In this document: piece after piece, positions 5,448 through 61,000 of the stretch | Position numbering within the stretch: position 1 is the stretch's first letter | Layout of the letters: the number at the start of each line of letters is the position of its first letter | DNA from: Malacoraja senta | Taxonomy: Eukaryota | NCBI GenBank assembly: GCA_038087875.1 | Contig: CM075990.1 | Span: 13,394,001-13,458,000, forward strand | DNA length: 64,000 nt | Reading direction: 5' to 3' | Translations under genes and position numbers: made by a program | The notes under the pieces: generated by a model | What the model saw: only the letters and a program-made list of their open reading frames with translations | Database searches by the model: none | What the model was told of the DNA's origin: nothing

Positions 5448-5578
5448 TGGAGGAAGGAACTGCAGATGCTGGGTAACACTGAAGATAGACTCAAAATGCT
5501 GGAGTAACTCAGCGGGACAGGCAGCATCTCTGGAGAGAAGGAATGGGTGATGTTTCGGGTCAAGACCTACTTGTCAGA
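5448..5578 (-). mobile_element. Penelope-derived short repeat with degenerate hammerhead core
   Basis: gaaggaactgcagatgctgg...gagtaactcagcgggacaggcagcatctctggagagaaggaatgggtgatgtttcgggtcaagacc, the same family as the 48052-48176 copy. Confidence 0.75.
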
Positions 5579-6578
5579 ATGGGAGCCAATGGTGAGCAAG
5601 CCAATGTAAAACTAACCAAGTTGGTGGTCATCCTTTCAGATGTGACTGTTAAAATAGTTCTGGCTGTTTGGATAATCCTCATCATTAGAGTTATTCCCCT
5701 CTCAACTCTGGCCATTAAATCTCATTGCTGTTTGCAGCATCAATGGCACAGACCTGCACAAGTCTTTAAATGAGGGTCAGTAGGGGAGTCTTTATAATCA
5801 ACTGTTATCTTACAATCAAGTGTTTGGGGAGACAAGACAAAAAGTAAAATGGATGTGAGATTGTGATTGAAGAGATCTCCAAAGTCAAGGCTTTTGAGTG
5901 TGGTGGCATTTGGTGAAATTCAGGAAGGCAACAAAAGCATGGAAGTCAGCTCCACAATTGCAGCAGCCATATAATCTAGTGGGTGGTGATTATGCAAAAG
6001 TATTTGAGCCCCGTCTCAAGTGTTGTCAGGAAGGGCAATGATCAAAAATTACTTTGTCAGTATACAACATTTTGTCACCATCACACTGAAACAATCGATG
6101 TCAAGGAGCATTTAAATGTGGCATTTGCATGACTGAATGATTTACCCGAGGACTGGCGTGTTTGCAACATCACCTGACTCATTCTGAACTTTCAGCTGAA
6201 AAAAGCAAATCTTAATAAATAGAACTTTTATATATCAGCCCAGGTGCATCATCTTGGCGTGTGTATAAACAATCTAGCCTCCAGGCAAGTGCAGGCAAGC
6301 CCTGTCAAATTGGGCCATGTAGAATTCTGCACATGACCATTTGCACTTTCAAATATTAATTATTTTAATTCCGAAACATGCACATTCCTGATGCATATTA
6401 ACAGAGTAAAAGCTGACGGCTACAACTCAATGTCAAATTAGAATGAACAGGTAAGCAGAATGCAATTTAGACAAGTATAGGACTTGAAGGCAATTATTAT
6501 CAGTGCTGAGATTTGAAATATCCTGCAGGTAGGGTGGGTAAACACTGATAGGTAGAGTTTAATAAGAACAAATAAATA

Positions 6579-58000: not shown

Positions 58001-61000
58001 GATGAGAAACTAGCAATAAAAATGAACAATTAAATGTTGTCCATGTCATGAATTTAACCAATTTATCAGAACAACTGTATCATGGACTGAATTTCAACCC
58101 AGTTTTGTGACCCTCTGTGCACAGGGTACTGATCTGGTACGGTACCTTTTAGGACTGGCCACAGATTGTTGGAAGTAAATCTCTGCCATTTGGAGCAATT
58201 CTCTGTATCGTGCAGAACCTTCCAGCTCCCCCTATTCAAGATAAACACACAAATTCTCACAACATGCTGCTATTAAAAATAAAACTAGCCTCCAGACATG
58301 TGGGACAGTTTAATTTATCATCTACCTCTTTGTTGCCAACATTTCCAAGCCTTTTTCTGGTCATGAGGAGCATGCAAATCTAAATCTATATTGCTTAAGA
58401 TTTTCTGAAGGTGACTTTTCCAATGATCAGCTAAAAACAGTTTGATCACCAACCCATTCATTTAGATACATGTTAACACAGAATTTAAAAACAGAACTCA
58501 TGCATAATACTTCTTCGATAGCTTTCAAAATCTTCCTCCTACATAGACACTTGACAGGTTGGACTGAGGCCTGTGAAGTATCTGCCCGGTTTTATGATTG
58601 GAGGCTTTTCCACTGATCAAGGAAGGTTACCATAGCTCGCTGTATATCAAATCTCCAAGAACACCAGCTACTGTATGAGAGTTAAATTGATGATTTATAC
58701 AAGTCCCAGCTGTTTTTTTAATGAACTGGCATCAGTACACAGCATGCTACTAAAATGGTGCCTCAATAAAATTGTTATTAAAGTCACCACAATATCCTTG
58801 CATGTTTTATTAACTATTTATTTAGCCCGCAACCATGTAAGCCAGAGAGAACAGAACTAACAATCATCCCCTTTCTGGTTTATGGGAGTTCTCAGCTCTC
58901 AAATGATCTTGTATCAATTTGTTTATGCCATCGGAAGGTTTAAATTTGAAATATGATACAATTTCGAAGTCTGACTTCTGGAATTGGACATATAAATCAA
59001 TGAAGCAATCTGTGGTATTTATTTTTGTGGCTTTTGGATGCTACGGGAGTCCAAGAATAATGTGTACCCTTTAAAATGTTGCTACTGGGAAGTTGGCACT
59101 TAGCAACATTCTAATACCTCTCCTATACTGAGTTTTTTCCCCCCAATATTCTTTTAAATTGAGAAGAAACTACCTAAAACACTACTAAGAAAATGGGAAG
59201 ATTCCACATCCCAAAGTTTGTGGATTAGTAGGCAAATTGCCCGCTGAAAATTAAGGAGTTGAGAGAAGCGAGAAGAGAGACCATAGGAGAAGGCCAGGAG
59301 GAAATATCAGAGGCCATGAGAGCTGGTTACTATTAATAAGGGGCATGGATAGCTCGTCGAACAAAATAAAAGATTTGGGGAAGACCATTGGGAAAGAGAA
59401 ATGAGCTGGAAGACGTACAAATTATTGGCAGAACAGGACAATTAAGTTATTTGAACACAAAGATTAGAATCTTTAAACAAAACATTTAGGTGCAACAGCC
59501 AGCAATGGTCGGGATTAAGAACAGGTGAAGTTTATTCAGAGTGAAATAGTTGGCTGCTGAGGAAAGCACTGCAAAAAGCCATCAGCTGCAAAAACACTGT
59601 TATAGGACTGCTTTTGAAGCAGGGGTAGAGTCAGACATCATGCCAAGATGGACGCAGATAACAGAGTTGCGTCAGGATTGAACAGCCAGGGTCAGCCAGA
59701 GACCAATGAGAGGATCCGAGTCAGAGACATGGGTGGGAGTTTGTGGTAGGGAGAAATATAATAGTGTTGGTTGTAACAGTGTTCAGCTTGAGGAAAAAGT
59801 GATTTGTCCAAGACTGCATGTCATTTTAGTAGTCAAACAATGGAAAAATAATGAAGGCATCGACACTGTGTCACTGGCATATTTGTGATGACTGTACTGA
59901 AGATTATGTTGCTATGAGAGATGGTAACACTGGAGTTGCGTTATTGACTAGTAATCTAGAAACCGTGTCTAATCATTTCAAGTCCTGAAACAGTTGTATG
60001 AATTTAATTGTTAATTAACTAATAAACTAACGTCAATAATGGTGATCGAACCCGGATCTCTAGTGCTGTGAAGCAGCAGCTCCACTAATGATGCCACTGT
60101 GTTACCCTAAAAAATGTGGCATTTGCTTCATATTTCCCAAGGAGTCACTACTCTGCAAAAAATGTCTTTGCTTAAATACAATTAGATGAAGGAAAGATTT
60201 GAATTCCTGTAGCGCTTTTTTTTATAACCGTGGGACATTCTAAAGCACTATATGTCGTTTCAGTGCTCCATTTTAAAGTTTTGTCACAGCAACACATTAG
60301 GATGAATAAACTACTTCTGCGTAACATAATTTGCGGCTACCCATTTCATTTACCGACAGCTGCTGTGTTTAATAGAAGCTACTGAAAATCTGGGGAGTCA
60401 GTAACCAAATCGATCTCATAAGCCTCTAGAAAGTTGTGAAATTAGTAGTAAGATTCTCTCAAAAACAGTTCACTGCGACTGAGTTCTAAAAGCAACATTT
60501 CAACAGCATGAGATGTGAATCCAGAGTGACAATAACCAGTTCTTACCCTGAAATAGGCATTTTTCTTTAGGCTGTTTAGAAACCCTTCCCACTGGGGGTC
60601 ACTGGCGACAGCATTTCCAGCTTTAATGTTAGAGACAGACTGGGAACATTTGGCACATAGGATCTCGAAACCGTGGGCCTAGGGAAGGAAAGGAAGTGAG
60701 GTAAATAGTATTTATAGGTAGGAAAGAACTGCAGATGCTGGTTTACATCGAAGGTACCTAGTATTTATAGGTGATTATTCAAAAGCTCCATGACAACAAA
60801 ATATTCAGGAATGGTCAAGAAAACATGAGATGGTTTGGAAGAGATTTTTAGGATTCTGTGCTTATCTTGTTTCCCCTATCATTTCACACCTTGCTAGTCT
60901 TTCCATTGTGAGACTCTGAGGATTTTGGTTTTGGGTTATGTATTAATTAAGGATATTAAAAAAAAATTTAAAACATAAAAGGAGGAACTGGAGTATGCCC

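Follow-up and report, generated by a model that had tools for sequence, protein, structure and literature searches.

Repeats in Malacoraja senta that are probably truncated ends of a Neptune-like Penelope-like element and carry a minimal type I hammerhead motif

Minimal hammerhead ribozymes (min-HHRs) have been described in the pseudo-LTRs (pLTRs) of metazoan Penelope-like elements (PLEs), including the Neptune, Poseidon and Xena elements of fishes, and most of the motifs reported there are single and probably derive from truncated PLEs (Cervera and de la Pena 2014, PMC4209133). The same source describes a min-HHR monomer that did not cleave and dimers that cleaved weakly, a review (PMC6765202) refers to dimer cleavage by PLE hammerheads (Lunse et al.), and one of nine predicted frog dimers has been published to cleave. 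For the PAc Poseidon element of Anolis, the sections of Frangieh et al. (2024, PMC11167929) drawn on here describe extension of both target strands, uncleaved RNA as the insertion substrate and no reads ending at the cleavage site; the element's protein was required for cleavage by the ribozyme, which was itself dispensable for insertion. Among titles and abstracts of open-licence papers, we found no report of PLE ribozymes from a skate or shark, and no skate or shark name occurs in two supplementary files of PMC4209133.

The window analysed here is the whole 64,000-nt stretch of Malacoraja senta DNA (contig CM075990.1, positions 13,394,001 to 13,458,000), which is repeat-rich animal DNA with 41% G+C that also carries exons of an SGT1/ECD-like gene and of a NUDIX gene. 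A single repeat family accounts for 4,101 bases (6.4%) of the window, in 32 arms at ~22 sites. These 32 arms were recovered at E<1e-3 among 36 rows by a profile built from 15 window arms, which match by construction, while the best E in the reversed-window control was 3.6. A 29-nt motif pattern with up to three mismatches gave 7 matches in the window against 0.00 expected from 100 shuffles, and a strict minimal-hammerhead descriptor gave 4 against 0 in 15 shuffles, at 10830-10857 (-), 20815-20842 (-), 31987-32014 (-) and 48052-48079 (+). A descriptor match at 4355-4381, which sits in a LINE, was treated as chance. DNA patterns had no match in viral, metagenome or prokaryote contigs, and the protein alignment had none in viral contigs.

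The first-pass annotation, made from the letters alone, had placed the motif at coordinates that were off by at most 1-2 bases. Of the nine cores that it called recognisable, four (10830, 20815, 31987 and 48052) hold the core, stem II and ACGT palindrome intact together, and the other five are damaged, at 22403 (G8 and palindrome), 23941 (stem II), 28657 and 33261 (palindrome) and 40503 (A9 and stem II); two that it called degenerate, at 5551 and 19645, are mainly arms cut within the motif. That annotation had missed the nine inverted pairs, all of them head-to-head, the existence of two 3' end classes, and the copies at 27556-27770, 55986-56091 and 57471-57636. The copies are given below, with motif positions counted from the first core base (C3 = 0) and the cleavage site lying after +27.

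5448..5567 (-): solo tailed copy, cut at ~+9
10765..11170 (both strands): inverted pair; left arm (-) with a GIY-YIG C-terminus at 10865-11083, deletion-joined to an intact hammerhead at 10830-10857; right arm tailed; 14-bp duplication with 1 mismatch
11255..11310 (+): 3' fragment with tail, within an inverted duplication of flanking DNA
19545..19712 (both strands): inverted pair joined within stem II (+6 / +8); tail on the left arm
20728..21010 (-): tailed copy with ~170 nt of native upstream sequence; intact hammerhead at 20815-20842
22395..22632 (both strands): damaged hammerhead arm (-, 22401-22428) head-to-head with a GIY-YIG remnant (+, 22510-22632)
22895..23220 (both strands): tailed inverted pair (22895-23090) within an endonuclease remnant that resumes at ~23100-23220 (+)
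23473..23654 (both strands): inverted pair joined within the stem II region, which is palindromic; tail on the left arm; 16-bp duplication
23770..24030 (+): 3' UTR and hammerhead (23941, stem II mismatch), tailless
24152..24228 (-): tailless arm, tail-to-tail with the copy at 23770..24030 and identical to it at 68/69 bases
27556..27770 (both strands): old diverged inverted pair, junction at the core
28655..28774 (+): solo copy with tail; 5' end at -2; broken palindrome; 14-16-bp duplication
29632..30148 (+): longest continuous copy; endonuclease end at 29632-29738, then a pyrimidine-rich 3' UTR followed by a hammerhead (30025) and a tail, both decayed
31924..32136 (both strands): head-to-head inverted pair; left arm (-) tailless with an intact hammerhead at 31987-32014; right arm (+) tailed; 7-bp duplication
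33199..33290 (-): solo copy without tail; 5' end at -2; CpG decay has removed the palindrome; target duplication looked for, none found
36268..36317 (+): 3' fragment with tail, beside a LINE piece
40412..40531 (-): solo copy with tail; 5' end at -1; damaged core; 16-bp duplication with 1 mismatch
46113..46329 (both strands): inverted pair joined at the core (+2 / -1); tail on the right arm; 10-bp duplication
48049..48177 (+): solo tailed pLTR-end copy, intact minimal hammerhead at 48052-48079, 5' end at -3; 9-bp duplication 48043-48051 / 48177-48185
55986..56091 (both strands): short inverted pair without a hammerhead; 14-bp duplication with 1 mismatch
57471..57636 (both strands): old inverted pair, left arm cut at +7; target duplication AT-rich and weak
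60718..60756 (-): tail-only copy; 14-bp duplication

The endonuclease pieces at 22510-22632 and ~23100-23220 (+) are the same remnant, interrupted by the pair at 22895-23090.

The whole core is spanned by 12 arms, of which 7 keep all 11 core bases and 7 keep the ACGT palindrome. Deviations from the column majority numbered 10 among the 170 cells of non-CpG core positions in the window arms, and 282 among the 2,055 cells downstream (P 0.002); because the arms are related and the seeds were picked for their cores, this conservation reflects the parent elements and not selection on the copies. An independent test set consisted of 80 loci found by endonuclease similarity alone (the best 80 of 495, 42-54% identity; hereafter the best-80 set). 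The motif lay 78-147 nt behind the endonuclease in 34 of the 80 and in none of the shuffles; 16 of all 80 loci had <500 bases downstream. Picking by core letters, with no pairing required, gave 40 matches in 40 loci of the best-80 set and 1 in the reversed control, amounting to 30 distinct motifs. Stem I of these 30 best-80 motifs paired at 0.93, 0.93 and 0.83 against 0.47, 0.75 and 0.45 when shuffled, with three covarying pairs; the window family forms only two pairs there. Their stem II paired over four positions only when one extra base was allowed after A9 (0.93-0.97 at the four positions, 0.23 at the fifth); this base was A in 29 of the 30, and the CG of the palindrome was present in 26. 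Stem II is better described as 4 bp with a 4-nt loop than as 5 bp with a 2-nt loop, since the latter loop is sterically implausible and the fifth position is unpaired in the relatives.

When 11 motifs of the window were aligned with 17 related ones, all picked by hand, 85.7% of cells were paired against 71.1% when shuffled; stem II with G10.1-C11.1 was paired in 97.3% of cells with two-sided change in 2 of 4 pairs, and the first stem I pair was formed in all 28 rows. Stem covariation and core conservation above the flanks, on which the first-pass annotation had staked its ribozyme reading, were thus both seen, and judged by its sequence the motif is the min-HHR of PMC4209133, a minimal hammerhead of type I. 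No hammerhead was among the 22 Rfam matches in the window, which was not counted against the assignment because the motif is without helix III. Stem I was 2 bp long in the five copies with native upstream sequence, reaching 3 bp in one of them via a C-to-T change. This shortness is a family trait and not a loss by decay, the two pairs being all that is found even where the native upstream sequence is kept.

A tblastn search with homologues located GIY-YIG ends at 10865-11083 (-), 22510-22632 and 23100-23220 (+), and 29632-29738 (+), with a best E of 2e-33. They are collinear with the motif at three sites, which bears out the endonuclease remnants noted at first pass; the remnants are too short for Pfam. 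The only named protein match was from Leucoraja erinacea, to which the remnant is 82% identical. The closest homologues combine a Cys linker with GIY-YIG, and some also have a reverse transcriptase (RT). The linker (CX2-5CxxC, ahead of the endonuclease) was found in 47 of 48 long relatives; it is common to Nematis and is not preserved in the window. One related locus has a 592-aa frame covering RT and endonuclease, 48% identical over 71 aa, and the RT part was reached in 23 loci of the best-80 set. Neither a PLE reverse transcriptase nor the Cys linker is present in the 64-kb window, and the autonomous parent was not found there. An open frame through the ribozyme and tail was considered as the start of a PLE protein and found unsupported, its one match being an unrelated chimeric prediction, with no match in 120 PLE proteins.

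The order of the element, complete at 29632-30148, is a GIY-YIG end, a pyrimidine-rich 3' UTR of ~290 nt, the minimal type I hammerhead, ~65 nt and an optional tail of 35-40 nt. We read the repeats as 5'-truncated and inverted 3' ends (pseudo-LTRs) of a Neptune-like PLE left by abortive insertions, with a probability of roughly 0.85. They are taken as truncated PLE ends and not as a SINE or retrozyme because the published PLE signature is present and neither a tandem array nor a tRNA gene was found. Membership in the Neptune clade is putative, given that the layout of Cys linker and GIY-YIG marks both Neptune and Nematis PLEs in the cited parts of PMC8557442. Several earlier proposals are supported, namely the PLE origin, the minimal type I hammerhead with an extra A and an ACGU palindrome, its covariation and mobilisation by PLE proteins. 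The separate SINE/retrozyme-like family proposed with them did not hold up: the copies form a 5'-truncation series of the PLE 3' end, three of them reaching the endonuclease gene, with no tandem array and no tRNA-like head.

The 3' ends of 31 arms fell into two classes, 18 at +118..+130 and 11 at +86..+98, with 2 elsewhere. At nine sites the copies form head-to-head pairs, and the tail was on exactly one arm in 9/9, two of these tails being degenerate and read by eye. As the motifs of a pair lie on opposite strands, a transcript of the pair would carry one motif in sense and one in antisense rather than a dimer. Of 20 units, 10 were flanked by target duplications of 7-16 bp, as compared with 12 of 380 mismatched flank pairs; the first-pass annotation had given 9-16 bp. 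No same-strand tandem copies of the unit were found in the window. Neither a 5' nor a 3' end lay within 2 nt of the cleavage site in any of the 31 arms; ribozyme cleavage was accordingly ruled out as the origin of the copy ends, which implies that the inserted copies were made from uncut RNA.

Published PLE biochemistry suggests how such copies may arise. The element's RT/GIY-YIG protein would nick the DNA, and reverse transcription of an uncleaved RNA would be primed at one of two internal sites, corresponding to the two 3' end classes, and would usually stop early. Priming from both target ends would give a head-to-head pair with a single tail. On this reading the ribozyme belongs to the parent element, where it would act only as a dimer or with protein help; in the genomic copies it decays, fast at its two CpGs.

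The only oddity among these otherwise ordinary PLE end-pieces is that many begin where the ribozyme motif begins. Nine of 26 defined 5' ends were at -3..+2 of the core (scan-corrected P 5e-5 on the assumption of constant truncation); when each site was represented by a single arm the figure was 7 of 17 (P 0.0006), and 4 of 9 solo copies had their 5' end at -3..-1 (P 0.008). Of these, three were bounded by target duplications, and no 5' end fell between -4 and -35. The numbers are small, the ends were curated by hand, five arms extending further upstream were left out of the count, and the width of the -3..+2 interval was set after the data were seen. The core-starting copies are 62-93% alike and spread across subfamilies on a weakly supported tree, where they require 6 changes, a number as low being reached in 146 of 500 shuffles; the boundary has thus arisen repeatedly. 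Further 5' ends cluster at +6..+12; most of these are junctions of inverted pairs in the region of stem II, where the sequence is self-complementary and local homology can account for them. In the related loci, opposite-strand arms provided 16 defined ends, of which 3 were at -3..+2 where 0.46 were expected (P 0.01), after one contig-edge arm was dropped and with six arms running on upstream. The pile-up at the ribozyme start is not explained by plain random truncation, and no reported 5'-end hot spot at a PLE hammerhead was found in titles and abstracts of open-licence papers.

As a tentative addition to the truncated-PLE reading, the PLE mRNA may start 3 nt before the core, so that cDNA primed at the tail sites of the 5' pLTR would run off the RNA end and yield standard solo copies of 95 and 133 nt, like strong-stop DNA. 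In Neptune-like elements, the PLE transcript would then begin at the first bases of the ribozyme, and an autonomous PLE could mass-produce SINE-like solo ribozyme copies without a short master, a proposal that we regard as possible and somewhat doubtful. It is favoured by the crowding of 5' ends in a 6-nt window in all three counts above, by the duplications bounding some of them, by their spread over the tree and by the weak echo in the related loci. The initiator-like consensus is YYANW, and a 3' splice site is a pyrimidine tract ending in AG. All five window copies with native upstream sequence match the former with its A at -3, but this consensus carries little information and is shared by only 7 of 40 related motifs (best 80 of 495 loci), and in Drosophila Penelope transcription starts 46 bp ahead of an intron that has its end mapped to helix I (PMC4209133). 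The same five copies also have a 3' splice-site-like match before the core, with 78-86% pyrimidines and AG at -3/-2 in four of them; a donor-like GT shares bases with the stop codon near 29738, and the intron of D. virilis likewise ends at helix I (PMC4209133). That splicing as in Drosophila Penelope sets the boundary is nevertheless unlikely: AG at -3/-2 occurred in 0 of 40 related motifs (best 80 of 495 loci), no GT..AG joint on 29400-30300 was among the 15 listed of 252 in runs that are contigs and probably DNA, and splicing would add an exon rather than create an end. The copy at 10830 was also ruled out as a spliced retrocopy; several UTR bases remain before its AG, and its lack of the UTR is therefore put down to a deletion.

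The boundary could instead belong to a short non-autonomous family, SINE- or MITE-like and ~135 nt long, that starts at the ribozyme and is amplified in trans by a PLE, as the first-pass annotation held. Most copies are indeed short, four of the solo copies start alike, the literature describes non-autonomous PLE derivatives, and the summed word depth in run X1 was 245,000-400,000 behind the ribozyme against 2,800-8,000 at the endonuclease end, a measure that is not a copy number. We consider such a family quite improbable, as the 5' ends range continuously from +90 into the endonuclease gene, the core-starting copies do not form one lineage, and the window contained no tandem units and 0 tRNA genes by ARAGORN, which can miss decayed heads. 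A non-LTR retrozyme, whose tandem units are cut by the ribozyme into circular RNAs, would share the type I hammerhead, and retrozymes linked to PLE pLTRs have been published from one cartilaginous fish; with the window's pairs inverted and no same-strand tandem copies in it, a ribozyme of the minimal PLE type rather than the canonical retrozyme type, and no copy ending at the cleavage site, this explanation has very little probability.

Self-cleavage is doubtful for the genomic copies, most of which are probably inactive, as proposed at first pass. In three window copies, the hammerhead as a two-strand junction had a predicted energy of -3.9 to -4.9 kcal/mol against -8.8 to -9.7 kcal/mol for the best alternative, so that even in this form the hammerhead fold was not the lowest-energy one in any of the three, being 4-6 kcal/mol worse. 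Single-strand folding of five window stretches revealed no significant structure (z -0.89 to +0.57).

The family extends the min-HHR result of 2014 to another cartilaginous fish, and at about one copy per 3 kb it represents a large, mostly decayed ribozyme load here, partly inside a host gene. The copies made from uncleaved RNA, as in vitro in another clade, and the 5' ends piled at the ribozyme start bear on the PLE replication cycle and on the role of the hammerhead in it. Should the transcript indeed start at the ribozyme, the short stem I of 2-3 bp would be explained, and a genomic map of PLE transcription starts would be gained.

The min-HHRs described in PMC4209133 and the window motif have in common the type I core, the lack of loop III, palindromic 15.2-16.2, the extra base between 9 and 10.1 and G10.1-C11.1; the window palindrome is 15.1-16.1 with no loop III. 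The two differ in stem I, which has 2 bp in the window as opposed to the typical 4-5 bp, a length of 2 bp being given in the cited sections for D. virilis only; stem II of the window motif has 4 bp. With the Neptune PLEs of Craig et al. (2021, PMC8557442), the family shares the C-terminal GIY-YIG, 5' truncation, an inverted 5' copy and a tail of 30-40 bp at one end, and the Cys linker of those elements is present in its close homologues. Unlike them, the window keeps only the ends, without RT and linker, the latter being also a feature of Nematis (PMC8557442). The same truncated, inverted and tailed anatomy is likewise found in PMC3846280.

The likeness to non-LTR retrozymes (PMC7229834; bioRxiv 10.64898/2026.07.22.740005) consists of the type I hammerhead, the kinship to PLEs and the lack of a protein, whereas retrozymes are defined in those sources by circular RNAs and tandem units with at least two same-strand ribozymes, and the window has no tandem units. 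The PAc Poseidon element of Anolis (PMC11167929) resembles the window family in its two internal priming sites that define the tail, the extension of both target strands, its uncleaved RNA template and the absence of ends at the cleavage site. It is of a different clade, its ORF starts at stem II whereas the window ribozyme has no ATG, and the sections of that paper cited here report no 5'-end hot spot like the window cluster. Taken together, the family adds at most a new member to an already described set of ribozyme, host element and truncated, inverted and tailed copies.

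In all copies of the Penelope-like element (PLE) family, positions 11.1-12 and 15.2-16.2 of the hammerhead ribozyme are contained in CpGs. G12 was replaced by A in 6 of the 21 arms (strand-oriented pieces) in the window and G16.2 by A in 5 of 22, a sequence pattern suggesting that methylation-driven decay may inactivate ribozyme copies.

At 33250-33296 (-), the flank of one copy fortuitously forms as many as 7 base pairs with the strand that follows the cleavage site. The potential stem I of this copy is far longer than the 2-bp stem of the family, and the stem III palindrome is broken in the same copy.

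The pair at 23883-24228 is oriented tail to tail, with 68 of 69 bases identical and a spacing of 120 bp; this orientation is rare, the other pairs in the window being head-to-head as a rule. At 11225-11329, a PLE tail fragment (the optional 3' extension) is enclosed by an inverted duplication of about 35 bp of flanking DNA, and this duplication produces spurious microRNA matches in Rfam. Other features of the window were as follows.

22110-22390, G+C-rich tandem repeat with a 56-bp unit
9536-10700, 11828-12914 (+), remnants of LTR elements (RNase H and integrase domains)
14519-14816, 20437-20677, 23228-23396, 26528-26605, 33876-34152, five copies of a short SINE-like repeat family distinct from the PLE family
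1949-5132, 16384-17857, 36292-38608 (-), LINE copies closely similar to one another, encoding RT and AP endonuclease
6571-8005, 15340-16367, 44435-45046, Tc1-like transposase remnants
51200-63139 (-), 34323-34619 (+), host exons with Pfam matches to SGT1 (ECD-like gene, five stretches) and NUDIX (one)

The PLE arm at 22395 is truncated on its 3' side by the tandem repeat, the LTR-element remnants flank the PLE pair at 10765, and one SINE-like copy directly follows the end of the PLE endonuclease at 23220. The LINE copies, which we take to be CR1-like, include a 520-aa open RT frame at 37046-38608. PLE copies were also located between the SGT1 exons, at 55986, 57471 and 60718.

Outside the window, a related PLE retains an open frame for both enzymatic domains.

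L049:93-1868 (+), 592-aa RT and GIY-YIG endonuclease frame on a metagenome contig
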